Below, in pieces: positions 3,069 to 36,136 of a DNA stretch of 64,000 nt. The notes below the pieces were generated by a model. That model saw nothing but the letters and a program-made list of their open reading frames with translations, ran no database searches and was not told the DNA's origin. The DNA lies in NCBI RefSeq assembly GCF_053078305.1, contig NZ_CP166879.1. One strand, given 5' to 3'. The position numbers and the translations under genes are program-made. Numbering within the stretch: position 1 is the stretch's first letter; every line of letters starts with the position of its first letter.

Positions 3069-5105
3069 ATGAATATACGCAACAATCATCTACCGGGAAC
3101 AGAAACTCTTTTTTCTGAAACTGAAACTGCGAACAGTAAACAACTTGCTGTTTTGAAAACTAACTTTCCACAGTGTTTCGATAAAAACGGAGCTTTCATT
3201 CAGGAAAAGCTGCTTGAGATCATCAGAGCATCAAATGTTGAAATCTCTAAAGAGTCATACTGCTTAAACTGGCTTGGCAAATCCTATGCTCGCCTGCTGG
3301 CTAACCTACCACCAACGACATTGCTGTCAGAAGATAAAGACCATAACCGACGTGAAGAGAACAAGAACAGTCAAAATCTGTTAATCAAAGGGGATAACCT
3401 TGAGGTATTAAAGCATATGGTTAATGCTTATTCTGAAAAGGTTAAAATGATTTATATCGATCCGCCATATAACACGGGTTCTGATGGGTTCGCCTATAAT
3501 GATGATCGCAAATTTACACCAGAACAGCTTTCTGATCTGGCGGGTATCGATCTTGATGAGGCTAAACGTATACTTGAATTTACCACGAATGGTTCAAGCA
3601 GCCATAGCGCATGGTTAACGTTCATTTATCCTCGTTTATATATTGCTCGTGAGCTTCTACGTGAAGATGGTGTGATATTTATTTCGATTGACGAAAATGA
3701 ATTAAATCAACTTAAAACTATTTGTGATGAAATTTTTGGCGAAGCAAATTTCATAGAAAATATTGTATGGAATAAACGTATCCCTAAAAATGATAAGGGT
3801 ATTGGTAATATCCATGAGTACATCCTTGCTTATGCGAAGAATAACGAAATAAGTAAAGAATTTTTAATGCGGAAAGATGGTATTGATGATGTATATCAGT
3901 TTATTGAAAAGTTAAAAAAGGAAAAGGTGCCATTAGATAAAGCAGAGCAGCAACTCAAAAAATTCTACAGCTCCAACGGATATGATCGTGGAATTACTCT
4001 TTACAACGGTTTGAACGAGGATTATAGGCCATGGGGTAAAATTAATATGAGTTGGCCTAATGCAGATTCATTTGGACCCACGTATGAAGTATTGCACCCT
4101 TTGACTAATAACCCTGTCAAAATCCCAGACAGAGGCTGGCGTTGGAAAGAAGGCACTTTTAATCATATTGCAAAAAGAATAGATGGAAAGTATGCAGATA
4201 TCAAAAAACTACATGATGGTAGCGTTATTTGTGGTGGAATTTGGTTTGCCCGTACAGAAAAAACCCAACCCAGTTCGGTTAAATTTTTAGATGAAGTTGA
4301 AGAGTTTTTACTAAGATCAATTATTTCAACTAAAAGTGATGGTGGTGTTGAGGTTGAAAATCTTTTTGGTGGGAAAGGATATTTCTCCTACCCGAAGCCA
4401 ACAAGTTTAATAAAAACACTATTTGGTTCAGTAAGAACCGAAGATAAAGACATTTATCTTGACTTTTTTGCTGGCTCTGGAACTACAGCTCATGGTATTC
4501 TGGAGTTAAATATTGAAGACGGCAGGAAAAGAAACTTCATCTGTGTTCAATTAGATGAAGAAACAGATAAAAAGAAACAAGCCTATAAAGAAGGGTATAA
4601 ATCCATCTTCAATATAACAAAAGACAGAATTATTAAGGCAGGAAAAAAGCTGAAAAAAGATAATCCTAATTATAATGGAGATTTGGGATTTAAAATATTT
4701 GAAACAGTTCATGATTTTCGAGCGAAAGATGAGTCTGAACTTACGCTTTCTAATCTTAGTTTCTTTGACGATGCTGTATTGACACCAGAGCAGTATGACA
4801 CTCTATTGACGACATGGTGCGTGTATGATGGCAGCTTGCTAACAACACCAATTGAAGATATTGACCTTAATGGCTACAAAGCACACTTGTGCGATGGTCG
4901 GCTATATCTAATTGCGCCTAATTTCACAAGTGAGGCTTTGAAAGCTTTACTTCAAAAGCTGGATGCAGACAAAGACTTTGCCCCTAACAAAGTTGTATTT
5001 TATGGCAGCAACTTCGAAAGTGCGAAACAGATGGAACTCAATGAAGCACTAAAAAGTTATGCTAATAAAAAATCTATTGATTTAGATTTGGTGGTAAGGA
5101 ACTAA
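3069..5105 (+). CDS. mod: type III restriction-modification DNA methyltransferase (Mod), N6-adenine
   Basis: 678 aa; IYIDPPYNTG (DPPY catalytic motif) and FFAGSGTTAHG (AdoMet-binding FxGxG); GGAGG RBS 6 nt upstream of ATG 3069; res follows directly. Confidence 0.9.
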   Translation: MNIRNNHLPGTETLFSETETANSKQLAVLKTNFPQCFDKNGAFIQEKLLEIIRASNVEISKESYCLNWLGKSYARLLANLPPTTLLSEDKDHNRREENKNSQNLLIKGDNLEVLKHMVNAYSEKVKMIYIDPPYNTGSDGFAYNDDRKFTPEQLSDLAGIDLDEAKRILEFTTNGSSSHSAWLTFIYPRLYIARELLREDGVIFISIDENELNQLKTICDEIFGEANFIENIVWNKRIPKNDKGIGNIHEYILAYAKNNEISKEFLMRKDGIDDVYQFIEKLKKEKVPLDKAEQQLKKFYSSNGYDRGITLYNGLNEDYRPWGKINMSWPNADSFGPTYEVLHPLTNNPVKIPDRGWRWKEGTFNHIAKRIDGKYADIKKLHDGSVICGGIWFARTEKTQPSSVKFLDEVEEFLLRSIISTKSDGGVEVENLFGGKGYFSYPKPTSLIKTLFGSVRTEDKDIYLDFFAGSGTTAHGILELNIEDGRKRNFICVQLDEETDKKKQAYKEGYKSIFNITKDRIIKAGKKLKKDNPNYNGDLGFKIFETVHDFRAKDESELTLSNLSFFDDAVLTPEQYDTLLTTWCVYDGSLLTTPIEDIDLNGYKAHLCDGRLYLIAPNFTSEALKALLQKLDADKDFAPNKVVFYGSNFESAKQMELNEALKSYANKKSIDLDLVVRN

Positions 5106-5107
5106 TC

Positions 5108-9646: not shown

Positions 9647-10594
9647 TTACTGGGCTGAGACCAGAGGAACCGGTAAAGGTGCGGCTTTCGTCTGTTCTTC
9701 AGCGCACTCCTCCACCAGGTACAGTCGGGGCTGTGGAAGTGTTTCCCTGCCCGGCCATTCGGCCTGCAGATCACTGTCCGTATGCTCTCCGCCATCGTAA
9801 CAGTTGTAACCCTGTATACCGTGTACCGGCTCGCTGTACCAGTGTCGGACCTCGCAGTCAAACACCTTCGAGATCTCACCAACCAGTTCGCCTGAAGGCG
9901 GATACCAGGGCGTGTCGATCAGCAGCACCAGACTGCTCATCTCATCACGCGCATGGCGAACATTATTTCCTGACGGCCACTCCACACCGTATATCCGGCT
10001 GTAAAGGCTGGTCGTTGTGGAAATACCCTGCAGCAGTCCACCTGAACCATTCAGCTCTGTAGCCAGACGGGAGGGTATGACCATCAGCATGTCACAGGGC
10101 TGCGCCTGTTCCGGGTAATCCGACAACCAGCTCCAGCAGGCTTCTGCATCAATGTGTTCACTCAGCCCGGCCAGACCAAACCAGTCAGAATACTGACGGC
10201 TCATCAGCGTGGTGATGATCTCCCTGGCATTATCCGGCAGATTACCCCAGCGAACAGCGCCGATACATGACTGGTGATAAAGACGCTCAATGGTCTTTAT
10301 CGTTTCACCATCCAGAACGGCATTTTTTACCAGCAACCCCAGCCACTGCTCAAACGCCTGGTTAGCCGGAGATGACAACCCCGTTCCGTGACGAACCAGC
10401 GCCGGATATGGCGGATACTGCGTCGTCCGTGTGGGTTTTACCAGCCCTGCACAACCGGCCAGAAACAGCTGTATACTCTGCTGTATGGCATGACGGTAGC
10501 GCGGGGTCTCACGCCCTTCAATCCACTGTGTAAGTACATCAAGACAGACTGATTTACCGGTAATTTCAAAACGGTTTTTGCACCATTCAGACAT
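9647..10594 (-). CDS. hypothetical protein
   Basis: 315-aa ORF; no family recognised. Confidence 0.5.
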   Translation of the reverse strand: MSEWCKNRFEITGKSVCLDVLTQWIEGRETPRYRHAIQQSIQLFLAGCAGLVKPTRTTQYPPYPALVRHGTGLSSPANQAFEQWLGLLVKNAVLDGETIKTIERLYHQSCIGAVRWGNLPDNAREIITTLMSRQYSDWFGLAGLSEHIDAEACWSWLSDYPEQAQPCDMLMVIPSRLATELNGSGGLLQGISTTTSLYSRIYGVEWPSGNNVRHARDEMSSLVLLIDTPWYPPSGELVGEISKVFDCEVRHWYSEPVHGIQGYNCYDGGEHTDSDLQAEWPGRETLPQPRLYLVEECAEEQTKAAPLPVPLVSAQ

Positions 10595-11539: not shown

Positions 11540-12517
11540 TTATGCTGCGCACTCCTGCGAAGTTCGCCGCGTCAGTAAATACTCTGATGCTTCACGTGCC
11601 TGCCGGCAGGCGCGAAACAGCGCTTTTTTGTCAGACTTCAGAACCTTAAGCCATCCGTCAATATAACTTTCGTGCTGTACGTCACCGGCAATCCCGAGAT
11701 GTGCACACAGAAAAGCACTGCCCATCTCGGCAATCAGCTCTTCAAACGCATATTCCGGGCTTTTGCGACCGGTAAAGGTACTTATCCCCACCCGCCGCAG
11801 GCGCTTTTCATGACCGGTACTGTGTACCAGCTCATGCAGCAGGGTGGCCTGGTAATCAGCCACCTGGTCAAACTGCGACGACAGTGGCATCACGATACGG
11901 TCAAGATCAGGCCGGTAGAATGCCCTGTCCTGTGGAAGTGACGAGACGCTGACGCCGCTGCCATTCAGTACCTGCAGCACCCGCTCACTGAAGGTATCTG
12001 CCGGCAGTGCATCCGCGCTGCCTTCCGCCTTCACCATCAGATGTTCAGGTAAACCGTCACACTGCCCCACATTAAACAGAGGATTCGATTTCAGTACCGG
12101 TACGATTTCCATGAGAGGCTCCCCCTCACTGTCCGTCAGCCGGTTACCGTGTTCATCCACAGCCTGTTTTTTCCAGTCTTTGTAAATCACCGCCAGCGTG
12201 GCCACCTCCCCTTTACGGACGTGGCCACCCAGTTGTTGCGCCTGACGGTACGTCAGCCAGTCATTGCTGACATACCCGGCTTCATCCGCGGCCAGCCACA
12301 GCAACAGGACGTTCACCCCTGTATAAGGCTTCCCGGTCAGGGCATTTGCCGGCATCATCTCCGGAAGCCCCACGCCATTACGCGCAGAGCGCCAGGGACG
12401 TTTCCAGGGTGGCACACCATTTTCAATGGCCGTAACAACCCTGTCGGTCACAAGCTGATACAGGTCACGTTCCGGAGTTTTAATCGCGGTACGTGAAGTA
12501 TGTTTTTTCGTTTTCAT
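11540..12517 (-). CDS. ardC: ArdC-like antirestriction protein (ssDNA-binding N-domain plus zincin-like metallopeptidase domain)
   Basis: C-terminal HExxH motif LLHELVHSTGHE; overall resemblance to ArdC/DUF1738; ORF 11540..12616 but ATG at 12517 (MKTKKHTSRT) with AGGGGG RBS is the likelier start. Confidence 0.7.
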   Translation of the reverse strand: MKTKKHTSRTAIKTPERDLYQLVTDRVVTAIENGVPPWKRPWRSARNGVGLPEMMPANALTGKPYTGVNVLLLWLAADEAGYVSNDWLTYRQAQQLGGHVRKGEVATLAVIYKDWKKQAVDEHGNRLTDSEGEPLMEIVPVLKSNPLFNVGQCDGLPEHLMVKAEGSADALPADTFSERVLQVLNGSGVSVSSLPQDRAFYRPDLDRIVMPLSSQFDQVADYQATLLHELVHSTGHEKRLRRVGISTFTGRKSPEYAFEELIAEMGSAFLCAHLGIAGDVQHESYIDGWLKVLKSDKKALFRACRQAREASEYLLTRRTSQECAA

Positions 12518-12550
12518 AAGAGCATGCCCCCTGAAAAAGATGCACGCTCC

Positions 12551-12576
12551 CTGTACGGTGAGAGTGCACCGTACAG
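12551..12576. promoter_or_regulatory. perfect inverted repeat CTGTACGGTG-AGAGTG-CACCGTACAG upstream of ardC-like gene
   Basis: 10-bp perfect stem about 35-60 bp upstream of the ATG at 12517. Confidence 0.4.
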
Positions 12577-12609
12577 TTAAATTAATAACGAAAATCAGAC
12601 TGGCCAGAA

Positions 12610-12993
12610 TTACCACAACGCCAGCATCACCAGTGAACGACGCTCAAAATCAAACGTCTTCAGCGTATTGCTGACCCACGCTTTTACGTCATCCACGTCA
12701 TACCAGTAATCACCGGCATAATCTTCCCCCCGTAAACACGAGCCTGTGACATAAGGAAACAGCCTGTGGCAGTTCCCCGGTGTCAGCATACTGAGGTCGC
12801 GCAATAATGCAGCCAGTGAACTGCGGGTTACAGGGAAAGCATGCTGCTCATCTGAAGCACCGGTATGTTCACGAAACCATGTCAGAAGAGGTTTCACCTT
12901 ACGGAAAGCCCCCACCTCCTGATGTTCCTGTGTTCCCACAACGGCACCACTGTGATGGTTATCACGAGCCAGAAAGTAAATATCGAGTCCCAT
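12610..12993 (-). CDS. hypothetical protein
   Basis: ORF 12610..13029; ATG at 12993 (MGLDIYF) has an AGGAGA RBS; palindrome CAGGGATATGTCCCTG at 13029-13044 lies upstream. Confidence 0.4.
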   Translation of the reverse strand: MGLDIYFLARDNHHSGAVVGTQEHQEVGAFRKVKPLLTWFREHTGASDEQHAFPVTRSSLAALLRDLSMLTPGNCHRLFPYVTGSCLRGEDYAGDYWYDVDDVKAWVSNTLKTFDFERRSLVMLALW

Positions 12994-16168: not shown

Positions 16169-17071
16169 TTACTCATAGCCTAACAACTGACAATAAACCT
16201 GTTCAATATATCGTCCTCTGCCATCACCATGACCAAGATCAATTGATGTCAGTGCAAGTGCCTCCTTATAACTGTAACCGTTCATAATATGATATTTCAT
16301 GGCACTTGCAGCGTAACTGTACCGAAAACTGTGTGCAGTCTCATCTCTGCCTTTCAGTTCTCCATAACGACGTAATGTATTAAGATAATAATCCATTGCC
16401 GACTTAAGATTATCTCTGTCTATAAGACGTCCATTATGTTCACTGGCATATTTGAGTGCATAATTAACAGCATCAAGAACGTTATCCCGGTCAACAACCG
16501 TTGTCATTCTTTCCCGTCCCCCTTTCGTACCAAAAATCACTCTTATTTTTTCATCTCCCCGTTGTAACGCTTTTTTCCAGGTTCGTAATGATTTGGCCGA
16601 CTGGATAGCTTCTTCATTTCTCAGACCGAGGTAACGTGACAGTTTAACAACAGCAGCCACCCCTTTATCTTTTGCTTCCACACGCTGAAGAATCTCCCGA
16701 AAACGCTCATCCGTGATTAATTTTTTTGTTCCCTTACGACTGGAGCCGGAAATGCCTAACGCTTTATTGCTGAGACGAGGATGTTCGGGATCAGCCATCT
16801 TATATTTACCTGCCTGACGTAACATAACCCGTATTGCAGACATTTCATTTTCCCTTGTTCGCCCAGAAACATTATTCCGGCTTCTCATATATAGCTCAAT
16901 ATGCCGGACTTTTACCTGCGCGGCAGAACTGATCTGTACATTCATTTTTGCCAGACTTTCAGCAAAGCGGTGCATGATCCTGGTGTAATCACTCAGCTTC
17001 TTGAAGCTGCCTTTGTCTTTTCGAATGTGAGCAACCAGATCCTGTTTCAGTAATTTTTCACGTCTGGACAT
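16169..17071 (-). CDS. tyrosine site-specific recombinase (phage-integrase family, ~300 aa)
   Basis: C-terminal catalytic signature HSFRYSYA ... LGHGDGRGRY (HxxR ... Y) and box-I-like RYLGLRNEE; ORF starts with GTG at 17086, ATG at 17071 has an AGGAG RBS. Confidence 0.85.
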   Translation of the reverse strand: MSRREKLLKQDLVAHIRKDKGSFKKLSDYTRIMHRFAESLAKMNVQISSAAQVKVRHIELYMRSRNNVSGRTRENEMSAIRVMLRQAGKYKMADPEHPRLSNKALGISGSSRKGTKKLITDERFREILQRVEAKDKGVAAVVKLSRYLGLRNEEAIQSAKSLRTWKKALQRGDEKIRVIFGTKGGRERMTTVVDRDNVLDAVNYALKYASEHNGRLIDRDNLKSAMDYYLNTLRRYGELKGRDETAHSFRYSYAASAMKYHIMNGYSYKEALALTSIDLGHGDGRGRYIEQVYCQLLGYE

Positions 17072-17120
17072 CAACTTCTCCTGCACATAATAATTTTTAC
17101 CTTAAACAGCTGTACGTTCG

Positions 17121-23689: not shown

Positions 23690-24362
23690 GAGAATATAGA
23701 TAACCTGAGGCCGTGCGCCTCAGGTACCAGTATAGTAATCAGTAACGTCAGCTTCCAGGTTGTAATGCTTTTAATTTTGATAAAAATAAACTTAATAAAT
23801 TACATTTGTTAAATATTGATAATTTTAATTTGGTTTTATTACTCCAGTTATACTCACACTCTATCTTTACACAATTCATCACCATTACACCTCCATAGCC
23901 TGTTGATTTAAAAGATTTAATTTCCTGTGAAACAATCAGGCCTGTATGAACCTGATTATACCACAGAATCTTTTAAGTTATTTAAATTTAACTCTCGGGC
24001 TTTTCTGTCAGTAAAATCAGAAAAATTGCAGGATTTCGTTTTTTTTGCTGCGAAGTGAAATGTATCTCATTTTTACTGCCTTCGCCAGTGCGTCAGGCAA
24101 TGGCAGGTAGTGTACCTGCATTCTGCTGTAACGCGTAATGTCGGGTAGTTTACTTAAACTTAATATGTTTTATGTTTGCATTATTATAAATCACTTTATT
24201 GCCTTTTGTCTGCTTTTTAATGGTTCCCGTTTTGTTCACTTCTGGCTTTATAAAAAATGGATGCTGAAGAAATGAAGGTAGTCCACCTTACATAATATTC
24301 ATGCATGATTTTTATGCTATTCCGACTGAGTGGAAGAAAATAAAGGAGAAAAGAGGGTATAT

Positions 24363-27300
24363 ATGAACCTCAGAAAAAAACATATCTGTATAGCCATATC
24401 ACTTGTTCTTAATCCGGCATCCATATCACAGGTCAGTGCTCAGGCAGATACAAATAAGTTAACTGTTGAAGTTGATGAAACCAGCCTTGGCCATGATGTC
24501 TATGGCGATGACTGGAAGAGCATTGAAATAGGTACAACGAAATTTACAGCAAAAGATGAATCAAAGGGAATTAATTTCGACCATAAATCACCGGTGGCTG
24601 AAGGACGTAACTCTATCGCGATTGGTACCAGTGCAGAGGCTGGAGGTGACATTAGCACGAAGGAAGGTTTGTACACAGGCGAGTCTATTGCGATAGGAGC
24701 GAAAACGAAAGCAACTAAAGAACAGTCAATTGCAATAGGTGGCGATACCAAAGCTACCGGATGGGGGGCTATTGTTATTGGTGGGGATGATTTAACTCCT
24801 TTGCATGGTAAGACTTATGGTCGGGAAAAAATAGAGAATGGCTATCTTGCATCGGAAGCGCAGGGGGATGGCAGTATTGCGCTGGGCAGCAGAACTTTTG
24901 CTAAAGGCGAATTGTCAGTATCGCTTGGTTCGGTGAGTTCTGCTGAGGGGATGGCCTCGAATGCAATTGGAGCCACGGCGGAAGCTAAAGGGGATATGGC
25001 GACTGCGGTTGGTTTTAATGCGCTGGCTAATGCCGGTAATGCTCTGGCCGTTGGTAGTCAGTCCTCTGCAAATAAAAACGATGCTCTTGCTGTTGGTTCA
25101 GAGGCAAATGCCGCTCAGAATGAAACGGTTGCCCTGGGGCATGGAGCAACCGTTACTGTCGCAAAGGGGAACGTGTCCATCGGCGCTGACTCCAGGGATA
25201 AGCAGGCACAAAAAGTAACAGAGGCTAAGGTCAGAACTAAAAGAGGCGCGGAAGTCACATATAGTGGCTTTGCCGGAAATAACGCAGCATCAGTAGTATC
25301 TGTTGGTGATGCGGGTAAAGAGCGTCAGATTGTTAACGTGGGGGCGGGTGCGATTTCTGACACAAGTACAGATGCCATTAACGGTAGTCAGTTATATGCG
25401 ATAGCGAAGACACTGAAAGATGACCTTGATGCCATTAATCCGACGTGGACGCTAAAGGATGATAAGGGAGGTTCTGCGACTATTAATGGTGGGAAGGATA
25501 ATAAGAATGGTAACACTTTAACTGTTAAAGGTGATGGAGATATTGCAGTTACTGTTAATGATAAAGGAATGACGATTGACGGAACAACGCTGAAAAATGA
25601 AATAAAAAATGATGCCATCAAAATTAAAGGTGGAGATGGTAAGACGCTGACGAAGAGTCTTGGTGACAATGTCGAAATCACTGGCAAAGGCCCAATAAAA
25701 ACCCAGGTGGCTGGAGATAAACTGGAGATTTCAGCAGAGACAGCTTCGTTGCCTGTAAATGGTGGTAACGGGAAGATTACAGTAAACAATGGTGATGGCG
25801 ATAAACTTGTTACTGCGAAAAACATTGCTGATGCCATAAACCAGTCTGGCTGGAAAATTAAAGCGGATAAAGATACCGGTGGTGTTATCGAGGGAAATGG
25901 TCAGGGAACAGAAACACTGATAAAACCCGGTGATATGGTTACGCTGAAAGCCGGTAAAAATCTCAGCGTGAAACAAAGTGGTGGTGATTTTACATTCTCT
26001 GTTATTGATACTCCGTCATTCAGCAGTGTTCAGCTGAATGGAAAAGGAAATAACGGAAGTGTAACGCTCTCATCCGAAGGTAATAAGCTGACATTGTCAG
26101 GCGGTAATGGTGCCGGACAAAATGGTGTTGTTATCAGTGGTGTGGCAAGTGGACTGGAAGGTAAGGAACTTTCGACGTTAACGAATACTGATAAAGAGAT
26201 GAAAAATGCCGCCAGTGTTGCAGACCTGAAAACGGCAATTGATGGTGTGTCCTCCAGTATGCAGGGTGCAGGTTTCGCACTGAAAGACTCTGATGATAAG
26301 GAAGTGAAACAGTCTCTTGGGCAGGCGATTAAAGTATCCGGGGACAGCAATATCACCACCACAGCCATCACCAATGGGGATAAGGGGTTAAAAATATCCC
26401 TGAATAATGACCTGAGCGTTGGGAGCAATAATACTCCCGGCAGCATCAAAGTTAACGGGGCTGATGGTAAGGAGGCTGTGAGTCTGAATGGTCAGGATGG
26501 CACGATTAAACTGACATCCTCGCCTGCTGCGGGTGGAAAGTCTGCGTCAGCAACCATTGCTGTTAATGCAGGCAAAGGTGGATTAACAGATGCTGCCGGT
26601 ACCACGAAGACACGTCTGACTTATACCCCGGATGGAAAATCACCGGCAGAAGAGCTGGCGACCATGAATGACGGTCTTTCTTTTGAGGGTGATGACGGAA
26701 AGGTTATTCATAAAAAACTGAATGAAAAACTGACCATCAAAGGTGGTGCAGAGAAGAATGCTGAAGTGACTGACGGCAATATCCGGGTTGATAATGATAA
26801 TGGCGGGCTTCTGGTGAGGATGACCAGAAACCTCCGTGATTTGGCCAGCGCGGTTTTTGGTACAGGTGGGCAGATAACAACAGTTAATGATAAAGGCATC
26901 ACAATCACAACACCTGCTGCGGGCGGTGGTCAGGGGAATACGGTTTCCCTTACCGGCTCCGGCCTGAATAACGGTGGAAATCAGATAACCAGTGTGGCCA
27001 GTGGTCTGAACGGCACTGCGCTTGCTGACGCCGGTGGAGATGTTCTGAATAATGCGGCCAATATCGGTGACCTGAAAAATGCTCTCCGTGACAGCAGTGC
27101 GGCACTGGTGAATACCGGCTTTGGTCTGCAGGCGGATGACGGAAGCAAGGTGAACACGTCTCTCGGGAAGCATATCACGGTTGGTGGTGACGGGCAGAAT
27201 ATCAGCACGACTGTTCAGAACGGGAGCCTGACGGTCAGACTCGCTGATAACATTCGCCTGGGAGATGACGGCAGTGTTTCTGTCGGCGGAACCCGGATGG

Positions 27301-28694
27301 ATAAAAACGGACTGACCATCAAGGATGGCCCGTCAGTGACTGTGAACGGTATTGATGCGGCTGGCCGGGTTATTTCCGGCGTGAAAGACGGGGTGAATGA
27401 CCAGGACGCCGTTAACGTTTCACAACTGAACCGTGAAATCAGTCAGGCAACGGCAGCAACGACCTGGGCACTGAAGACTGAATCCGGTGATGAGGCTGTT
27501 GCTGTTTCCTCCCAGACGGTTGAAGTCCGTCACGGACAGAATACCCGGGTTTCAGCCATCAGTAAGGATGATAAGGGAAATTACAGCTATGAGATTGATG
27601 TGACGGGGATTCCGGTGGAGTACACCGACAGCCAGGGGAACCCGCTTGTCAATATTGGTGGTCGTTTTTACACACAGACCGAAGATGCTGCGACCGGGAA
27701 ACTGACAATGACGCCGGCTGAGCCGGCCCGTGTCAGAATAAGCAGTGAGCAGCCTCTTGTTCTGACAAATGTGGCGGCCGGAAATGTGTCACCGGTATCC
27801 ACGGATGCGGTTAACGGGAGCCAGCTGGCATCTGCAGCCAGAATTGCTGGCGGTGATAATGTTGTCTGGAAAGACGGAAAAGCAGCGCTGGCTCCTGACA
27901 CCTTCAGTGAGCTGACAACTGCAGGTGGCGGTAAGACAACGGTGAATGGTGGTGTACATAAAACACCGGATAATGTGGCTGATGCAGTGAATATGCTGAA
28001 CCGTGAAGGCACGAAGTATTTTAAAGCTGCCTCTTCCGGTCAGGCAGCAAAAGCGGAAGGGCGTGACAGTATTGCTGTCGGACAGGGGGCCGTTTCCCGG
28101 GGACAAAACAGCATTGCCATGGGTAATGGTGCTGAAGTCACGCGTCAGGCTGCTGCCGGCTCTGTTGCAGTTGGCAGCCATGCCCGTGCTGGCCGCGCGA
28201 ATACCGGGACTTATGCCCTGAACGGTCAGGCTGTTGCGGGACGTACCGGAAGTGATACTGCGGTGGTTTCTTTTGGTCAGCCGGGACAGGAGCGTCAGCT
28301 GCAGTCAGTGGCACCGGGTGTGTTGTCTGCGAATTCAACGGATGCCGTCAATGGCAGTCAGTTGCATGCAACTAACCGTCAGGTTGCCGGAAATACACAG
28401 GCGATAAACACCCTCGGGAATAAATTCAGTCAGCTGAGCTACCGGGTGGAAGAGCTTAACCGGGATATCCGTGGTGTTGGTGCATCGGCTGCGGCCATGA
28501 GCGGGATACCTCAGGCCTATCTGCCGGGTAAAAGTCTGATGGGGCTGGGTGTCGGTGGATATGGTGGTGAAAGCGCCATTGCAATAGGGGTGTCCCGAAT
28601 CTCCGATAACGGTAAGATGATAATGAAACTGAATGCAGGTCAGAACACCCGGGGTAATTTCTCCGTCGGTGCCGGTGTGGGCTGGCAGTGGTAA
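24363..28694 (+). CDS. trimeric autotransporter adhesin (YadA-like anchor)
   Basis: 1443 aa from ATG 24363 (ORF opens at 24330); signal peptide; recurrent neck motifs DAVNGSQL / AINGSQLYA; YadA-type C-terminal anchor ending GVGWQW. Confidence 0.85.
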   Translation: MNLRKKHICIAISLVLNPASISQVSAQADTNKLTVEVDETSLGHDVYGDDWKSIEIGTTKFTAKDESKGINFDHKSPVAEGRNSIAIGTSAEAGGDISTKEGLYTGESIAIGAKTKATKEQSIAIGGDTKATGWGAIVIGGDDLTPLHGKTYGREKIENGYLASEAQGDGSIALGSRTFAKGELSVSLGSVSSAEGMASNAIGATAEAKGDMATAVGFNALANAGNALAVGSQSSANKNDALAVGSEANAAQNETVALGHGATVTVAKGNVSIGADSRDKQAQKVTEAKVRTKRGAEVTYSGFAGNNAASVVSVGDAGKERQIVNVGAGAISDTSTDAINGSQLYAIAKTLKDDLDAINPTWTLKDDKGGSATINGGKDNKNGNTLTVKGDGDIAVTVNDKGMTIDGTTLKNEIKNDAIKIKGGDGKTLTKSLGDNVEITGKGPIKTQVAGDKLEISAETASLPVNGGNGKITVNNGDGDKLVTAKNIADAINQSGWKIKADKDTGGVIEGNGQGTETLIKPGDMVTLKAGKNLSVKQSGGDFTFSVIDTPSFSSVQLNGKGNNGSVTLSSEGNKLTLSGGNGAGQNGVVISGVASGLEGKELSTLTNTDKEMKNAASVADLKTAIDGVSSSMQGAGFALKDSDDKEVKQSLGQAIKVSGDSNITTTAITNGDKGLKISLNNDLSVGSNNTPGSIKVNGADGKEAVSLNGQDGTIKLTSSPAAGGKSASATIAVNAGKGGLTDAAGTTKTRLTYTPDGKSPAEELATMNDGLSFEGDDGKVIHKKLNEKLTIKGGAEKNAEVTDGNIRVDNDNGGLLVRMTRNLRDLASAVFGTGGQITTVNDKGITITTPAAGGGQGNTVSLTGSGLNNGGNQITSVASGLNGTALADAGGDVLNNAANIGDLKNALRDSSAALVNTGFGLQADDGSKVNTSLGKHITVGGDGQNISTTVQNGSLTVRLADNIRLGDDGSVSVGGTRMDKNGLTIKDGPSVTVNGIDAAGRVISGVKDGVNDQDAVNVSQLNREISQATAATTWALKTESGDEAVAVSSQTVEVRHGQNTRVSAISKDDKGNYSYEIDVTGIPVEYTDSQGNPLVNIGGRFYTQTEDAATGKLTMTPAEPARVRISSEQPLVLTNVAAGNVSPVSTDAVNGSQLASAARIAGGDNVVWKDGKAALAPDTFSELTTAGGGKTTVNGGVHKTPDNVADAVNMLNREGTKYFKAASSGQAAKAEGRDSIAVGQGAVSRGQNSIAMGNGAEVTRQAAAGSVAVGSHARAGRANTGTYALNGQAVAGRTGSDTAVVSFGQPGQERQLQSVAPGVLSANSTDAVNGSQLHATNRQVAGNTQAINTLGNKFSQLSYRVEELNRDIRGVGASAAAMSGIPQAYLPGKSLMGLGVGGYGGESAIAIGVSRISDNGKMIMKLNAGQNTRGNFSVGAGVGWQW

Positions 28695-28718: not shown

Positions 28719-29498
28719 ATGTTATTTAGTCGAATGATGATGACGGGTGTGCTGTCCCTGATGCTTGCAGGATGTGGAAATCTGAGTCATGTCACGGATG
28801 AAGGAACGACGGAAGAAGTGGTATGGCCTTCTCCGGAGAAGGTGATGTTTAATCATGACGGAACACAGAAAGGTTCGTGGCCACTGCCAGAAAAGTTACG
28901 TCAGATAAAGGCGGGTATGAATAAGGACCAGATTTATCAGCTGGCGGGGAGACCACACTTTGCTGAAGGGATGTCTGGTGTAAGGGAATGGGATTACCTG
29001 TTCAACTTTACCGGACCGGAGGGGGATTATACCTGCCAGTACAAGATACTGTTTGACCGGAACATGGATGCCCGCTCTTTCTACTGGAAGCCGGAAAACT
29101 GTCTGCCGGAGGCAGAGACAGCAGAATACAGGGAGTCAGTCCCCGGTGATATATTATTTGATTTTGATTCATGGACTCTGACAGAGAGGGGGCGTGATGC
29201 GCTTTCCCGTGTGGCAGAGAAGTTTCAGGCGGGTCATGTTGTCGGGGTGAAGATAGAAGGATTTACGGACCATCTTGGCGGGCAGGCGTATAACCGGCTC
29301 CTGTCAGAGAAACGGGCGGAATCAGTCAGGGGGTGGTTTATTGCCCGGGGATTCAGGGCTGAAAGGATACATGCAACGGGCCGTGGATATGATGCACCAG
29401 TGGTGTTCTGCCCGGATGTGGAGGGCGAAGCACTGAAGGAATGTCTGCGCCCCAACCGCAGGGTTGAAATAACCGGGGAAACATCAGTGACTGATTAA
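28719..29498 (+). CDS. OmpA-domain lipoprotein, TpgA-like partner of the adhesin
   Basis: 259 aa; lipobox LAGCG; C-terminal OmpA-like peptidoglycan-binding region (GFTDHLG ... NRRVEI); AGGAG RBS, 24 nt after the adhesin stop. Confidence 0.7.
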   Translation: MLFSRMMMTGVLSLMLAGCGNLSHVTDEGTTEEVVWPSPEKVMFNHDGTQKGSWPLPEKLRQIKAGMNKDQIYQLAGRPHFAEGMSGVREWDYLFNFTGPEGDYTCQYKILFDRNMDARSFYWKPENCLPEAETAEYRESVPGDILFDFDSWTLTERGRDALSRVAEKFQAGHVVGVKIEGFTDHLGGQAYNRLLSEKRAESVRGWFIARGFRAERIHATGRGYDAPVVFCPDVEGEALKECLRPNRRVEITGETSVTD

Positions 29499-29612
29499 CA
29501 ATAAAGTGCCCCGGGAACTAATGCCAGTCAGTTCAGCAACTGACTGGCTCTTTTTCGGGGCTGTGGGGTATTTCCAGGGAGCCTGTTTAGGAATCTGTGT
29601 AAATGCCTTTTC

Positions 29613-30134
29613 TCAGAAGTGACCGTCCAGGCGGTCACCGAACTCGATAATAAAGCGGCTCATTGCCATTCGCCGGTTTTGCCATTCTACAACCTGCTCC
29701 ATCACGGCATCGGTGACCTTTGATATCAGTGCCGGTGAAACATCTGCGTCATACAGCTCTTTGAACGCAGCAGCGATCTCACGGGTGGTCATCCCTTTGG
29801 CATACAACGAGAAGATCTGGTTATCCATCCCAGTAATACGGGTCTGATTTTTCTTTACCAGTTGTGGTTCGAAGGTACCGTCACGATCGCGCGGAGTACG
29901 CAGTTCCAGTGGACCGTCGCCTGTGATAACGGTCTTTGTGGAATAACCGTTGCGGGAGTTAGTTCCCGGTTTGGACTGATTTTTCTCATACCCAAGATGG
30001 TGTGTCATCTCTGCATTGAGAGCGGCTTCAACGCTGATCTTTTTCAGTAGACGGTCAAACTGGCTGAGGTCTTCAGGGGTTTTGAGGTTTTTGGCCAGTT
30101 CGTTAGCCAGAGCCTGTAACTGTTTTTCGTCCAT
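29613..30134 (-). pseudogene. IS256-family transposase, 5' fragment
   Basis: 173 aa (MDEKQLQALANELAKNLKT...EWQNR) matches the N-terminal third of IS256-family transposases, then diverges and stops. Confidence 0.7.
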
Positions 30135-31560
30135 AAATTAACCTTCATTTGATGCTTGATTGAACATATCAAAATCAGGCAATTACACAAATCTATGTAC
30201 AGGCTCTTTCCAAGGCCTCTCCTTTACCACTCTCGGGAAGCCCCTTTCCCTTCTTGTCGGTAATTTCACAAGTTGTCCCATACTTGCAAGATCGCGCATC
30301 AGCCCCGGTATACGTCCCGGTGAAGCGCCCTGCAATGTCATCACCATTCCGCATGATTCTGAGAAACTCAGTTGATTCGGCCAGTAACCTTTCAGATGTT
30401 CCGCCATTTTAATCATCTGACATCTTACCAGATTATAAGCCAGTAAGACACCCCACAGCTCTTGCTCCACAAGCTCCGGCTTTTTACAGCGTCAGCCTGC
30501 TCAGTTGCATCGTCTGTTTTATCTCCCTGTATCCCAGTTCAATTTCCCGGCGATGACTGTACAGATCCGCCATTTCTCCCCCGGGGAAGCGCATGGCGTC
30601 CGTCATCGACGTCAGCAGATGGCAGACTTCTCCTTTGCGCGTCACGGTCAGCAGGCGGGCTGTCACCTCATTTCCCAGTCCCGGCCACTTTTTTCGTGCC
30701 TGCGGGCTGGTTTTCAGCTTCACCAGATGATCGCCTTTACCCAGTTTTCTGATCTCTTCATATTGCGCTCCCTTTCTGAGAGGGATCATCCAGTGGCGGT
30801 GTTCTCCCACCAGGCTCCAGGCATTTAACAGTCCCAGTGAGTAATAACCTTTATCCATTAACGTCAGGGTGTTATCGCCGGTTTGTTCTATAAGTTGCTC
30901 AGCAAGCTCATTTTCGCTGTTCTTCATCGTGCCGAAGGCTCAGCCGTAAGCAGATGGCTGGTCAGTTCCATCTGGCAGACTATTTTGACCTGCGGGTAGA
31001 GCGCCGGGTTGCCGGCATGTATCTGGCGGGGGAAGGCTGCATCGTTCTCTGGTGTATCCGGTGTGCGCCAGAACATACCATCGATGGCCAGCAGGGTCAG
31101 GCCGCATCAGTGCGGATGCGGCGTGGCGTTATGCCAGAGCTGCGCTGTTTTCGTGAACACGCGGCGGACAGCCTCACTTCCCAGGTGCTGGCGGGCCTGA
31201 ATAACGGCACTGGGGGCAACGAAGGGGCGATTGCCGGCAGCATGATGTCCAGGCGATTCACAATCTGGTGAAGGGGCTCTTTACGCTCAAGCGCCATGCC
31301 AACAATACACCAGACCATCATTTCGAGGGGAAGACGGCGCTTGCGTAGCGTTACCGTACCTGATTCGGCAAGGCAACGAGAGATGAGTTCGGGGTCGAGG
31401 TAATCCCCCAGAGAAGCCAGTGGGTTACGCAGAGAATCGTAACGGGATACCAGATCAAGGGCCTGTCCAGTGTGCATAAAAAATCCGGAAACGAGTGAGC
31501 GTTTCCGGATTCTTACACAACCACTGGATCGGTCAACTGATCCTTAACCGATCGGCATTA
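30135..31560 (-). mobile_element. IS4 remnant (disrupted transposase; one terminal inverted repeat present)
   Basis: ORFs 31097..31477, 30484..30927 and 30183..30470 together match IS4 InsG in three frames; IS4-type terminal repeat ...CCGATCGGCATTA ends at 31560; the other end is not recognisable. Confidence 0.7.
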
Positions 31561-31590
31561 CGGCATTGCCGGGGTCAGACTAAGCATCTT

Positions 31591-32166
31591 TTAGACGTTG
31601 ACGCCGTGCTGGGAAGCAAGCGCTGACAGGCCACCGGAAAAACCCTGACCGACAGCTTTAAACTTCCACTCAGCGCCATGGCGATACAGTTCACCGAAGA
31701 CCATTGCGGTTTCAGTTGAGGCGTCTTCAGACAGATCGAAACGGGCAATTTCCGCGCCGTTATCGTTGTTGTAAACGCGCATGAAGCTGTTGCTCACCAT
31801 GCCGAAATTTTGTTTACGCGCTTCTGCATCATAGATGGTAACGGCAAATACCAGTTTTTTGACGTCAACTGAGACTTTTGCCAGATCGATTTTAATTTGC
31901 TCATCGTCACCATCGCCTTCACCGGTACGGTTGTCACCCTGGTGCTCTACTGCGCCATCAGGGCTGGTTTTATTATTGAAGAAAATGAAATGGGCATCTG
32001 ACAGCACTTTACCGTCTTCACCTACTGCGAATACGGAAGCGTCCAGATCAAAAGCCTGACCGTCAGTTACACGGGCATCCCAGCCAAGACCAACCATAGC
32101 AACATTCATGGTCGGTGCTTCTTTGGTCAGAGATATGTTGCCGCCTTTTACGAGAGAAACTGCCAT
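31591..32166 (-). CDS. terE: tellurium resistance protein TerE
   Basis: 191 aa from [13 protein letters not shown]; TerD-family fold signature [13 protein letters not shown]. Confidence 0.9.
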
Positions 32167-32233
32167 TTTTAACTCCTGCAAACAGTTGAATGAGGGCTGA
32201 ATCAACAGCCCGGAATGAAAAGTTAGTTTTCGA

Positions 32234-32812
32234 TCAAGACGCGTTAATGCCGTACTGAGCACATACAGATGCCAGCCCCCCCGCATAACCCTGACCTACA
32301 GCACGGAATTTCCACTCACCATTGTGACGATACAGTTCACCGAACAGCATGGCGGTTTCAGTGGACGCATCTTCAGTCAGATCGTAGCGAGCAACTTCAG
32401 TCTGGTTATCGTCATTAACCAGGCGAATAAACGCCCCGGAAACCTGACCAAAGTTCTGACGGCGAGCCTGAGCATCATGGATCGTCACAACGAAGATGAT
32501 CCTGTCGATGTCAGACGGGACAGTATCAAGTTTAATTTTCAGCGATTCATCATCACCATCCCCCTCACCAGTACGGTTATCGCCGGTGTGCGTTACAGAA
32601 CCGTCGGATGACGTCAGGTTGTTATAGAAGATGAAATCTGAATCGCCACGCACTTTGCCGTTTGCGGTCAGCAGGAATGCTGAAGCATCCAAGTCAAAGT
32701 CCTGACCGTCAGTTGAACGTGCATCCCAGCCAAGACCCACCAGGACGTTTTTCATTGACGGAGCTGCTTTACTCAGGGAGACGTTCCCGCCTTTGGAAAG
32801 AGAAACACTCAT
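32234..32812 (-). CDS. terD: tellurium resistance protein TerD
   Basis: 192 aa from [13 protein letters not shown]; TerD-family. Confidence 0.9.
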
Positions 32813-32860
32813 AAAATAACCTCTTCGATTAGTAATTGCTCCGGTTAACACTTAAGGGGA

Positions 32861-33901
32861 TCAGTTCCCCTTTTCCTCAGATTCAGGTTTGCCGGGGAAA
32901 ATAACGCTTGCGAGAATGCCCAGCACCAGAACCCCCAGTACAACATACAGGCTGGTTGTCGCAGCGATGCTGTAACCATGATGCCAGATGTGATCGGTCG
33001 CGTTCAGGCCCAGTTTTACCGCAATGAAGAACAACAACACGATAACAGCCTTTTCCAGATGAATCAGGTACTGTTTCAGTGCTTCAAGGACAAAGTACAG
33101 AGTACGCAGCCCCAGGATAGCAAACATCATGGCACTATAGACGATAAGCGGTTCACGACTGACAGCAATGATTGCCGGTACCGAGTCAAACGCAAACATA
33201 ACATCCGAGAGTTCAACCACGGCCACACACAGGAACAGAGGGGTCGCATACAGCGCCGCCTTTTTACCACGGTCAATGGTTACATCACTGTTTTCTGGTT
33301 TCGCCAGTTCAGCATCCACTTCCTTCTGGTTAAGCAGGAAGGCATGCCCACGTAGCTTCGGCCAGACAGGGAAGAAACGTTTAACCATGCGGTAAGCCAG
33401 ATGCTGGGAGTAATCTTCAATTTCATCATCATCATCACCGCTTTTAAGCATCATGACCGCTGTCCAGGCAACGATGATAGCGAAGACGACTTCAACGTAC
33501 GGCCCCAGACTCAGCAGGCTCGTACCGATGGCGACAAAGATTCCCCTGAAGACGATCGCTCCAATGATCCCCCAGTAAAGCACACGGTGCCGATAACGAT
33601 CCGGAACAGCGAACCAGGAAAAGATGGCCATCATGACAAACAGGTTGTCGACCGACAGTACTTTCTCCAGCGCATACCCCGTGACAAACAAACTGGCAAC
33701 TTCAGCACCGTGGTGGATATAGAGGAAACCGGCAAATGCCATCGCAACAACAACCCAGAATACGGACCAGAGCGCCGCACTCTTCAGGGAGATTGGCTTG
33801 TCATCACGGTGCATAAACAGGTCAATAAAGATGGCTCCGACTGAAAGAGCAATAAAAACAATGACCGTTTCAGTCGGGAAGCCGATGTGTGTGGAAACCA
33901 T
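32861..33901 (-). CDS. terC: integral membrane protein TerC
   Basis: 346 aa, multi-pass membrane protein in conserved ter gene order. Confidence 0.9.
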   Translation of the reverse strand: MVSTHIGFPTETVIVFIALSVGAIFIDLFMHRDDKPISLKSAALWSVFWVVVAMAFAGFLYIHHGAEVASLFVTGYALEKVLSVDNLFVMMAIFSWFAVPDRYRHRVLYWGIIGAIVFRGIFVAIGTSLLSLGPYVEVVFAIIVAWTAVMMLKSGDDDDEIEDYSQHLAYRMVKRFFPVWPKLRGHAFLLNQKEVDAELAKPENSDVTIDRGKKAALYATPLFLCVAVVELSDVMFAFDSVPAIIAVSREPLIVYSAMMFAILGLRTLYFVLEALKQYLIHLEKAVIVLLFFIAVKLGLNATDHIWHHGYSIAATTSLYVVLGVLVLGILASVIFPGKPESEEKGN

Positions 33902-33919
33902 ATTTTACCCTTAGGGATG

Positions 33920-34375
33920 TCAGAGGCCAAATTCAGCCGGCTCGAAGCCCAACGCGATAGCGATCTCGCGGGAGGCCAGTTTCTCGTCCTGATCGAAGTT
34001 ACCGTCGCTTTTCGCAACAGCAATACCAACACGTAAGGCCAGTTGAGCGGCCTCAGGCTGATCTTTCAGCGCCAGGATGTATTTCATGGTCTCGCCCTTG
34101 CCGATTTCAACATCGAAATCGAAGCTTGAAACCAGTTTATTGAAGAACTCGATCACCTCATTGGTATCGAAGACCTTCAGCTCTTCTGAAGAGCGCAGAA
34201 AGCCCATCATTTTCTGCTTTTCTTCCGAACTCACGCCGTCACTCGATACGGCAATACGGGCACATACAGCAACGGTGCCCTGCATGAATTTTTTGTTTTT
34301 GAAACGACCAACCTGGCGGGTCAGTTCGTCACGACCAGAGTTAATGGCACCTTTAACTTTGTCGAAAAAGCTCAT
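33920..34375 (-). CDS. terB: tellurium resistance protein TerB
   Basis: 151 aa from MSFFDKVKGAINSG; conserved order. Confidence 0.85.
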   Translation of the reverse strand: MSFFDKVKGAINSGRDELTRQVGRFKNKKFMQGTVAVCARIAVSSDGVSSEEKQKMMGFLRSSEELKVFDTNEVIEFFNKLVSSFDFDVEIGKGETMKYILALKDQPEAAQLALRVGIAVAKSDGNFDQDEKLASREIAIALGFEPAEFGL

Positions 34376-34397
34376 ACCAGTTTCCTTTATTGCTGTG

Positions 34398-35555
34398 TTA
34401 TTTAGAACCGGCGCTCCAGCGAAATCCCCAGCCAAATGCCCGGTCCATTTCGTCCTGGCCTTTGAAGTACTGGTTGATACGCTCAACTTTAATCGCACCG
34501 TTTTCGTTTACGAGTCTGGCAATGGCGCACAATGTGCGACGGTTTTCACCTTCAGTCAGGCGGGTCTCAATGGGCGGTTGATCCGGCACATAAATGGTGA
34601 CCACTCCATCAGTCTTGTCCCAACTGGGAACACCTTCATAAATAAAGGCGTAAATCAGCACTTCGCGGATATGCTTCCATTCACGTCCATTGATATGCAG
34701 CCACTCGCCGTCTGATACATCACCCGTCCGGTCATCGCCCTTGAGCTGAACATAAGGTTCATCGCGATAATCACCGAATGCATTACCGAGCGCCTGAATG
34801 ACCGACTTATACCCGTCCTGAAGCTCAACAAAGGCTCCCAGATCCAGGTCGATGCCTTTGGAGCCGAACATGCCTGCAAAGCCGGATTTGCCGCTGCCCC
34901 GGTGCCAGTTCAGGTTGATCCTGATTTCACCGAAGTTATCCCGTTTGGTCAGACTGATTGCAGGCATCTCTTTTGTCAGAGATACTTTACTCAGGCTGAT
35001 TTTTGTCTCAGCTGGCAGAGGGGGTACAACCGGAGGAGTCGGGGCTGCGGGAGCCGGTTCGTCGGCAATATTTACGCCGAAATGCTCTGCCAGCGGTTTA
35101 AGTCCACCGTTGAACCCCTGCGCAACGAAGCGGAATTTCCAGCCATTATTACGACGGTAAAATTCACCCAGAATTAAGGCTGCTTCCTGACGGCCGCTCA
35201 GTTCGACACAGCCGCTCACCAGGCCGGTAGCCCCTTGCTCCACGTCGATGGAAAGATTACGAAGACCGGACACCGTCTGCCCACCGTCACAGGTCACGGT
35301 GAACGCAATTTTCTGGACATCAGGTTTCAGCCGGTTGAGCGCGACAGTAAAGGTTGAGTACTGACCTTCACTGACCAGGCTGACAGTACCATCATCGTTA
35401 CGTGGCTGACCATAAAACACCATGTCCGCATCCCCCTGCACCTTCCCGGCGGCATACAGGCGAAACGCTGAAGCATCCACCTGGACGCCCGAGGTTATCC
35501 GGACCCGCAACTCCTGGGCTGGAACGGGGGCATTGCCCCCCGGCATCAGGTTCAT
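34398..35555 (-). CDS. terA: tellurium resistance protein TerA
   Basis: 385 aa with TerD-like domains. Confidence 0.85.
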   Translation of the reverse strand: MNLMPGGNAPVPAQELRVRITSGVQVDASAFRLYAAGKVQGDADMVFYGQPRNDDGTVSLVSEGQYSTFTVALNRLKPDVQKIAFTVTCDGGQTVSGLRNLSIDVEQGATGLVSGCVELSGRQEAALILGEFYRRNNGWKFRFVAQGFNGGLKPLAEHFGVNIADEPAPAAPTPPVVPPLPAETKISLSKVSLTKEMPAISLTKRDNFGEIRINLNWHRGSGKSGFAGMFGSKGIDLDLGAFVELQDGYKSVIQALGNAFGDYRDEPYVQLKGDDRTGDVSDGEWLHINGREWKHIREVLIYAFIYEGVPSWDKTDGVVTIYVPDQPPIETRLTEGENRRTLCAIARLVNENGAIKVERINQYFKGQDEMDRAFGWGFRWSAGSK

Positions 35556-36136
35556 TAGCGAATAACCGCAGAAACGATATCGGAGTGCATATCGTCAATT
35601 GTGCGACCGCGACAGGCATGACCAAGGGCGGTAAAGTCCCAGTTGCCGTTATTACGGCGCAGCGAAGAAATAACGATCCCGGTATGTGAGCCCTGCTCAG
35701 TCAGCTTGTAGCAAGCCAGCTCTTTGCCGGTTTGATCGACCACACGACAGAACGCATTTTCGACGTCATTGAACGACTGCCCACGGAAGCTGTTAACCGT
35801 AAACGCCAGGTATTCAACGTTTGCAGGCAGACGGGAGAGGTTGACCTTAATCACTTCATCGTCGCCGTCACCCTCACCAGTCAGGTTATCACCGCTATGC
35901 ACAACAGCTTTGCAGGTGGATTCCAGTTTGCGGAACCAGATGGTGTCAATTGTTTTACCGGTGCTGTCCATTAATACACAGCCAGCATCGAGATCGATTG
36001 AGTCGTTACCTCCAAACAATCCTCCAAGAAAACCTTTTTTCTTAACCGGATCCCAACCGAGACCGAAATGAAGCTGGCTTAATGCAGGTGATTCTTTGCT
36101 GAGTGATACCGTCTGATTCTTAACTAATGAAACCAT
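35555..36136 (-). CDS. terZ: tellurium resistance protein TerZ
   Basis: 193 aa TerD-family (MVSLVKNQTVSLSK); stop overlaps terA start (TAATG). Confidence 0.85.
   Translation of the reverse strand: MVSLVKNQTVSLSKESPALSQLHFGLGWDPVKKKGFLGGLFGGNDSIDLDAGCVLMDSTGKTIDTIWFRKLESTCKAVVHSGDNLTGEGDGDDEVIKVNLSRLPANVEYLAFTVNSFRGQSFNDVENAFCRVVDQTGKELACYKLTEQGSHTGIVISSLRRNNGNWDFTALGHACRGRTIDDMHSDIVSAVIR

Follow-up and report, generated by a model that had tools for sequence, protein, structure and literature searches.

What stands in this locus where terF would be expected, and how did a tellurite-resistance operon come to lie tail-to-tail with an adhesin module? In the window (the whole 64-kb stretch of DNA that was analysed) the minus-strand terZABCDE operon and the plus-strand adhesin and OmpA-family genes converge on a region of insertion-sequence remnants (Table 1). 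The first-pass annotation, made from the sequence alone, read this region as a recombination scar in which an IS4 with only one terminal repeat abuts a 5' fragment of an IS256-family transposase. Our alignments instead support a two-level nest of dead insertion sequences, an IS1414 element (IS256 family) inside an IS4, at the site of an old IS4-associated rearrangement in which the DNA past terE was lost; we put the probability of this reading at about 0.8.

The operon is of the published ter-type 4. The type-4 primers TeR 4_4F/4R match exactly at 32894-32914 and 32509-32528 (in-silico PCR product of 406 bp, as published), and the type-1, -2 and -3 primers have one to three mismatches or no match in the window. 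In the description of type-4 elements by Nguyen et al. 2021 (PMC8193136), their content includes conjugation genes, a fatty-acid cluster and IS256-family transposases. A fatty-acid gene cluster, conjugation genes and an IS256-family transposase are also found next to this region in JNEC-KY171, the one complete E. coli genome in which the entire arrangement is found (99.8% identity on the ter side). The nesting and decay of insertion sequences seen here are ordinary, within a described island type.

Table 1. Features of the locus, in window coordinates
Feature	Position	Strand	Evidence or remark
YadA-like adhesin, 1454 aa	24330-28694	plus	
OmpA/BamE-family gene, 259 aa, last of the ireA / YadA-like adhesin / OmpA module	28719-29498	plus	PF04355 and PF00691 on identical protein; 'OmpA family protein' in JNEC-KY171
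OmpA-family terminator hairpin remnant (5' arm and part of loop)	29506-29518	plus	cut by IS4 end
IS4 distal end, 60 bp	29519-29578	minus	98.4% identity to terminal 61 bp of intact IS4 in L002 and L003
IS4 distal terminal inverted repeat	29519-29536	minus	
Terminator-like hairpin in IS4 distal tip, 11-bp stem, then TCTTTTT	29523-29548		starts 25 bp downstream of OmpA-family stop (29498)
IS1414 target duplication, copy 1, TTTCCAGG	29571-29578		IS4 sequence
IS1414-type element, 628 bp (full length 1315-1316 bp)	29579-30206	minus	96-97.6% identity to IS1414 copies
IS1414 inverted repeats, 30 nt	29579-29608 and 30177-30206		repeat finder, independent of alignment; 77% complementary
IS1414 ORF, 173 aa	29613-30134	minus	residues 1-153 fused in frame to last ~20 residues, original stop codon
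Joint of 687-bp deletion	29674/29675		~1 nt microhomology
IS1414 target duplication, copy 2, TTTCCAAG	30207-30214		7/8 match to copy 1
IS4 main body, insG pseudogene	30207-31560	minus	global alignment to intact IS4
IS4 transposase ORF pieces	31097-31477; 30924-31076; 30484-30927; 30183-30470		frames 1; 2; 0; 2
IS4 deletion, 12 bp (IS4 positions 1226-1237)	near 30344/3		in frame
IS4 deletion, 5 bp (IS4 positions 1077-1081)	near 30488/7		frameshifting
IS4 deletion, 1 bp (IS4 position 623)	near 30941/0		frameshifting
IS4 deletion, 1 bp (IS4 position 327)	near 31236/5		frameshifting
IS4 deletion, 1 bp (IS4 position 78)	near 31484/3		upstream of start codon
IS4 proximal inverted repeat	31543-31560	minus	
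terE 3' untranslated region with truncated terminator	31561-31590	minus	GACCCCGGCAATGCCG left; 3' arm GGGGT and T-run gone
terE, last gene of terZABCDE (ter-type 4)	31591-32166	minus	
terZ-terA-terB-terC-terD-terE	31591-36136	minus	ORFs; annotation of 99.8%-identical relative; Pfam TerD, TerB, TerC on identical proteins

Anatomy of the IS4 and IS1414 remnants

Sequences of the IS4 and IS256 families, as named in the first-pass annotation, are confirmed across 29519-31560 of the window. The transposase ORF pieces of the region match the Pfam families Nterm_IS4 (E-value 4.7e-22), DDE_Tnp_1 (8.2e-16) and Transposase_mut (3.1e-37), and the NCBIfam IS4 and IS256 models likewise match them. Alignment to intact IS4 and IS256-family elements, a check that the same annotation had proposed, bore out both family assignments and revealed how the two elements are arranged. 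IS4 occupies the full interval (minus strand) with both of its termini present (TAATGCCAGTCAGTT... at 29519 and ...AACCGATCGGCATTA at 31560; the ends match each other at 14 of 18 positions), the distal tip reading CCCCGGCATTGCCG and the proximal tip GATCGGCATTA. Against the intact IS4 of strain SCU-387 (L002) the alignment falls into two blocks that overlap by about 9 bases: window 30207-31574 corresponds to positions 53-1440 of the retrieved IS4 stretch, and window 29519-29579 to its first 61 bases. We considered whether the 14-bp extension of the alignment with L002 is a longer IS4 end or a common target, and rejected both; it is a chance likeness of two different flanks.

Once the insert and one copy of its target duplication are set aside, the IS4 measures 1406 bp (canonical: 1426 bp), of which 1379 positions (98.1%) are identical; compared with an intact 1426-bp copy, it has about 2% substitutions and five deletions that total 20 bp. 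The transposase had been noted as disrupted in three frames, and this holds: the deletions of 1, 1 and 5 bp displace the frame along the gene. Its domains are recognisable, but no single intact ORF exists, the reading frame being spread over three frames and cut by IS1414 as well, so the insG of the window is a pseudogene. The same IS4 is annotated as 'frameshifted; internal stop' in JNEC-KY171. Its sequence is identical across all draft loci, so the decay is older than the spread of this island type.

The second insertion sequence lies wholly within the first. Alignment to a canonical IS1414 (L003, strain KE41) gives two blocks, 29579-29677 and 29666-30207, which contain both ends of the element. 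The insertion site is about 60 bp from the distal tip of IS4, after canonical position 1366 (about codon 427/442 of insG), and TATTTCCAGGGCCTCTCC, present once in intact IS4, is found copied on both sides of IS1414. Members of the IS256 family duplicate 8-9 bp of their target. IS1414 is an insertion nested inside IS4 with an 8-bp target duplication of its own, and for this reason it had no part in joining the ter and adhesin modules.

These alignments bear directly on the reading in which a one-ended IS4 is fused to an IS256-family 5' piece, with the fusion point as the deletion scar. Read from left to right, the IS4 homology does seem to end at 30207, 48 bp from the IS256-family start codon, and a spacing of 48 bp is indeed found between that ATG (30134) and the last IS4 piece (30183). 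The 60 bp of IS4 that seemed to be missing, however, are present with their terminal repeat at 29519-29578 (98% identical to intact IS4 copies), on the far side of the nested element and 20 bp away from the stop codon of the OmpA-family gene. What was taken for a 5' fragment of the IS256 family is an IS1414 that has suffered a 687-bp internal deletion but has both inverted repeats, an 8-bp duplication of IS4 sequence and its own 3' end, with the last ~20 codons and the stop codon. Comparison with intact IS4 and IS1414 thus refutes two butted fragments, and we give this explanation practically no weight.

Relative to the copy in JNEC-KY171, the nested IS1414 lacks 687 bp, or 229 codons, in frame (codons 154-382 of the 402-aa protein). 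The Transposase_mut match of the 173-aa ORF covers profile positions 16-158 of 379 alone, so the catalytic core is gone; the ORF scores below the NCBIfam cut-off (126.9 vs 150), and no full Mutator-type transposase with a catalytic core is encoded by this copy. The canonical astA (element nt 789-905) falls inside the deleted segment, and no such ORF is found in the window copy. The retained 628 bp show high identity to IS1414 and terminal inverted repeats, and are flanked by an 8-bp duplication. Beside the deletion joint there are six linked SNPs in 68 bp (29608-29675), five of which agree with canonical IS1414 and not with the resident variant; this pattern hints that the SNP patch and the 687-bp deletion may have arisen in a single deletion-plus-conversion event.

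Decay of IS1414 copies by deletion is reported to be common (PMC12585946). This particular form is private to the locus: among the top matches in 5,426 complete E. coli genomes, no match is another 687-bp-deleted IS1414. A dispersed family of such elements was accordingly rejected: the top matches are two-piece alignments to full-length 1315-bp elements. Strain KE41, in which an IS1414 lies 10 bp from an intact IS4, was considered as evidence of a recurrent composite and discarded, the two elements there being adjacent, not nested, and unrelated to the arrangement described here. It is very doubtful that the 628-bp derivative is a non-autonomous element mobilisable by full-length IS1414, and/or that its truncated protein is a trans-dominant inhibitor of IS1414 (hence of astA amplification), with the six-SNP patch as a trace of exchange with an active IS1414 copy. 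The idea is based on the retention of both inverted repeats, the open in-frame 173-aa remnant and the recurrence of the element at this locus in several genomes.

The two edges of IS4 and the DNA beyond terE

The 11 nt that flank IS4 on its two sides (GCCCCGGGAAC vs CGGCATTGCCG) match at 2 of 11 positions, that is, there is no target duplication. The duplications reported for the IS4 subgroup range from 10 to 13 bp (PMC2266710), and among ten control IS4 copies in different contexts we found exact duplications of 11-14 bp in eight, with a ninth having 11 bp offset by one base. What is duplicated in the control copies is mostly the middle of a terminator-like hairpin with A- and T-runs on its sides; such sites are a frequent IS4 target among them. 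Missing duplications are classically ascribed to recombination between copies of an insertion sequence or to adjacent deletion (PMC11708052), and we take the absence here to indicate rearrangement; it does not count against the identity of IS4.

IS4 is bordered on each side by a 5' half-terminator; the two come from different terminators, each of which is intact elsewhere in an unrelated context. On the ter side, the O26, IncHI2 and TUM9803-type sequences read TAA...GACCCCGGCAATGCCGGGGTTTTTTTT after terE, with an intact terminator (ACCCCGGCAATGCCGGGGTTTTTTTT); the window is the same up to ...GCAATGCCG, where IS4 begins. The terF-side half of this terminator is TAATGCCAGTCAG, and the intact continuation past the type-4 terE 3' end would read GGGGTTTTTTTT. 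The start of the ter-side flank coincides exactly with that expected for an 11-bp duplication with the terE hairpin at its centre, and this edge looks like the original junction of the IS4 insertion.

On the adhesin side, the window reads GTGCCCCGGGAAC up to the junction and TAATGCC after it, and IS4-bearing loci have GTGCCCC(G/A)GGA(G/A)C followed by the IS4 tip. Where the same OmpA-family protein is encoded without IS4 (L005, L029, L034 and L037), the stop codon is followed by GTGCCCCCGGAGCAATTCCGGGGGC, an intact terminator, and then by MFS/iol genes or other DNA; the half missing from the window is GCCCC[CG]GGAGCAATTCC or AATTCCGGGGGCC. The joint is exact at the IS4 terminus and falls inside the terminator that is intact in these four loci, which favours a junction made by the transposase, or recombination within IS4, over a random break. 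Unlike most control IS4 insertions, this junction is not symmetric on its hairpin.

Could IS4 simply have been inserted into a pre-existing convergent spacer between terE and the OmpA-family gene, its duplication having eroded since? The element is old enough for about 2% substitutions and five deletions, and loci differ from one another in the bases that adjoin the junction. But the flanks match at only 2 of 11 positions while IS4 itself is 98% conserved, they align to two different terminators that are intact in separate genomic contexts, and the adhesin module occurs without ter, beside iol genes or other DNA. We therefore consider an insertion without rearrangement extremely improbable. 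The converse, ter as a simple insertion into the OmpA-family/iol neighbourhood, was rejected too: iol/MFS genes are not found beyond the ter module in the window. Pattern scans of genome and metagenome contig collections gave zero matches for an ancestral or reciprocal junction, be it an IS4 that bears the duplication CGGCATTGCCG with terF on its far side or a type-4 terE whose terminator is uncut.

The cut terminators may matter for transcription. With the 3' arm and T-run of the terE terminator gone, transcription of terE may continue into the dead insG, which points the same way; on the other side, the hairpin in the IS4 distal tip could stand in for the lost terminator of the OmpA-family gene.

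That the ter operon ends at terE with no terF, as had been stated at first, was confirmed with two TerF proteins: tblastn with the 128-aa O26 TerF and the 413-aa IncHI2 TerF (a TerD-like N-terminus plus a vWA domain) finds just the paralogs terA, terD, terE and terZ in the 64-kb window, which also has no DNA homology to the O26 terE-terF region. A comparison with ter islands that retain terF had also been proposed, and it places terF 84-430 bp past terE in three related lineages: IncHI2, TUM9803-type (a chromosomal island) and pLVPK-type (a more distant plasmid). In a fourth, O26/O157, terF is a truncated stump (128 aa in O26) beside a transposase fragment. Identity to the window operon is 93% for O26/O157 type-1, 92% for IncHI2, 92% for TUM9803-type and 81% for pLVPK-type. 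Since the terF-bearing lineages bracket the window operon by identity, loss of terF is the parsimonious reading, and the DNA lost past terE was most probably terF. The deletion of terF, which had been called probable from the start, thus keeps that standing, now by comparison among lineages.

A variant of this reading accepts the rearrangement but supposes that the ter-type 4 ancestor never had terF, and that IS4 removed some other DNA. Operons described as terZABCDE do exist in other bacteria (PMC4633105, for example, gives this name to the operon of Yersinia pestis), Nguyen et al. 2021 (PMC8193136) count six genes in the E. coli operon and make no mention of terF, and terF is dispensable for resistance according to PMC12054061 and to a passage of PMC8123226 that cites Kormutakova et al. 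2000. Against it, the lineages with terF past terE (truncated in type-1) bracket type 4 by identity, and the terE terminator of the window has the sequence of those lineages in which the terF spacer comes next. We regard an ancestor without terF as unlikely. The closest plasmid relatives (Enterobacter, 93.8% identity) also have no terF, and carry an IS5 200 bp past terE, which suggests that removal of terF by insertion sequences is recurrent. With the O157/O26 stump and the IS5 of the Enterobacter plasmids, the present locus would bring to three the independent cases in which an insertion sequence removed or truncated terF, and recurrent loss agrees with the published dispensability of the gene.

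An IS4-associated rearrangement with loss of terF can be laid out as five steps; their order (IS4 insertion, replacement of the far side, IS1414 insertion) is put forward on grounds of parsimony, as is an immediate ancestor that carried terF. IS4 would first have entered a terZABCDE(F) island in the middle of the hairpin that terminates terE. Other DNA would then have taken the place of what lay beyond IS4, bringing the IS4 tip up against the loop of the OmpA-family terminator; this outcome is evident from the missing target duplication together with two half-terminators that differ in origin. Two IS4 copies may have recombined, or intramolecular transposition of IS4 may have made an adjacent deletion; the result would be loss of the DNA past terE, most probably terF, and a tail-to-tail joining of ter to the ireA / YadA-like adhesin / OmpA module. 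In a third step IS1414 inserted about 60 bp from the distal tip of IS4, at about codon 427 of insG, with the 8-bp duplication that is present today. The decay of IS4 (five small deletions and about 2% substitutions) is the fourth step. The fifth is the 687-bp in-frame loss from IS1414 in the sub-lineage of this strain, which took the catalytic core and the astA region. It is likely that nothing in the region is mobile or functional today. The earlier idea of a scar that joins the ter and adhesin modules is thus upheld by an IS4 without duplication and two half-terminators, but the anatomy assigned to the junction was wrong, and the IS256-family element was not involved.

Alleles and distribution of the locus

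The locus is present in many draft genomes, as look-up of the exact TerE and OmpA-family proteins shows (TerE in 245 collection blocks, the OmpA-family protein in 170). The junction between terE and IS4 is identical in all 17 ter-linked loci examined that were retrieved in this way. The IS1414 copy exists in several alleles. [quoted passage not shown] A 60-bp-deleted allele is found in L009, L011 and L013, the 687-bp-deleted allele in the draft genomes L010/L035, L012 and L014 (L010/L035 being 100% identical to the window across 12.6 kb), and in L008 the IS1414 copy is cut by another insertion sequence. A crossover at the deletion joint was considered as a general cause of the unequal divergence of the ter and adhesin sides and rejected: the adhesin side is variable among all loci, including L012, which has the same deletion, and the ter side is invariant in all. 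The junction sequences could be used as a lineage marker for ter-type 4 islands, and the IS1414 alleles (full length, 60-bp deletion and 687-bp deletion) as markers of sub-lineages.

Comparison with known systems

Beyond the correct annotation of the structure, which is IS4::IS1414-delta and not two fragments, the significance of this locus is small. In the E. coli ter-type 4 island, the place where the tellurite-resistance module meets the adhesin module is marked by IS4, not by the IS256-family element. The ter-type 4 description of Nguyen et al. 2021 (PMC8193136) contains neither the IS4::IS1414 nest, nor the missing target duplication, nor the absence of terF.

The operon shares with the terZABCDEF operons of O157/O26 SpLE1, IncHI2 and the Klebsiella pLVPK-type the order terZABCDE, the upstream accessory genes and the terE terminator up to the edge of IS4. 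It differs in what comes next: terF follows terE in those operons (413 aa with a vWA domain, or the 128-aa stump of O26), and none of terF is present here. Compared with IS1414, the carrier of the EAST1 enterotoxin gene astA within its transposase gene, the window copy has the same 30-nt repeats, 8-bp duplication and N-terminal Transposase_mut region, but has lost the catalytic core and all of the astA region through the in-frame 687-bp deletion. The outer element differs from the IS4 of Escherichia coli (IS4 family, IS4 subgroup; insG) in having no 10-13-bp target duplication, five internal deletions and an IS1414 at about codon 427/442; it agrees with it in sequence (98.1% identity), in both terminal repeats, in the remnants of Nterm_IS4 and DDE_Tnp_1 and, like most of the control copies, in having one edge at the centre of a terminator hairpin.

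Polymorphism around the decayed IS4

Variation among the loci compared is one-sided: the ter side (29674-32200) is invariant, whereas the entire adhesin side is polymorphic. Six linked SNPs (window 29608-29675) adjoin the IS1414 deletion joint and set the allele with the 687-bp deletion apart from both the full-length form and the one that lacks 60 bp. The window carries the base of canonical IS1414 at five of these six SNPs, a match which suggests that the patch may have arisen by gene conversion or templated repair, with another IS1414 copy as the donor.

A second polymorphism lies at the adhesin-side junction. In two ter-linked loci with a full-length IS1414 (L030 and L036), the first base of IS4 at the site equivalent to window 29514-29519 is C, not T, and the flank beside the IS4 tip also differs (CCCCAGGAGC). 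The few bases at this junction vary unusually from locus to locus, given that the loci are otherwise near-identical.

The YadA-like adhesin gene is hypervariable in its N-terminal and central part (window 24500-26500), with ~150 differences and indels in 2 kb compared with E. coli JNEC-KY171, against ~0.2% elsewhere. Identity is only 79% between window 24301-25456 and two of the genomes that encode an identical OmpA-family protein and have no IS4 (L034 and L037).

IS elements in other contexts and terF in other ter lineages

Most duplications made by the control IS4 copies (L002, L007 and L019-L024) are 11-14 bp long and correspond to the middle of a terminator-like hairpin with A- and T-runs on its flanks; on Shigella sonnei pSS046 (L023), IS4 is bordered by mutually reverse-complementary sequences and not by a direct duplication. 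IS4 and IS1414 also occur together in strain KE41 (L003 3001-5752), in a separate arrangement without nesting: 10 bp lie between an intact IS4 and an intact IS1414, which directly abuts the IS4 target duplication of 11 bp.

Other ter lineages have independently had terF truncated or lost via IS elements: in O26 it is a 128-aa stump beside a transposase fragment (L004 7734-8416), and in Enterobacter IncF plasmids IS5 lies ~200 bp past terE, with no terF (L028 4810-5981).

Left part of the window and the JNEC-KY171 island

Window genes outside the ter-IS4 region
Feature	Position	Remark
Type III restriction-modification pair (Mod + Res)	3069-8020	
DUF1281 gene	9647-10594	after type III pair
ArdC-like anti-restriction gene	11540-12616	after type III pair
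Integrase_1 gene	16169-17086	after type III pair
YadA-like adhesin gene	24330-28694	

Mod combines N6_N4_Mtase with an EcoP15I C-terminal domain, and Res combines ResIII with an endonuclease domain. The part of the window from this pair to the Integrase_1 gene has no collinearity with JNEC-KY171. In the related island of that genome, subA and subB, which encode subtilase cytotoxin (L025 697-2179, upstream of the window-syntenic region), and a sialic-acid utilisation cluster precede the ireA-adhesin module by ~18 kb; the left part of the window is different.
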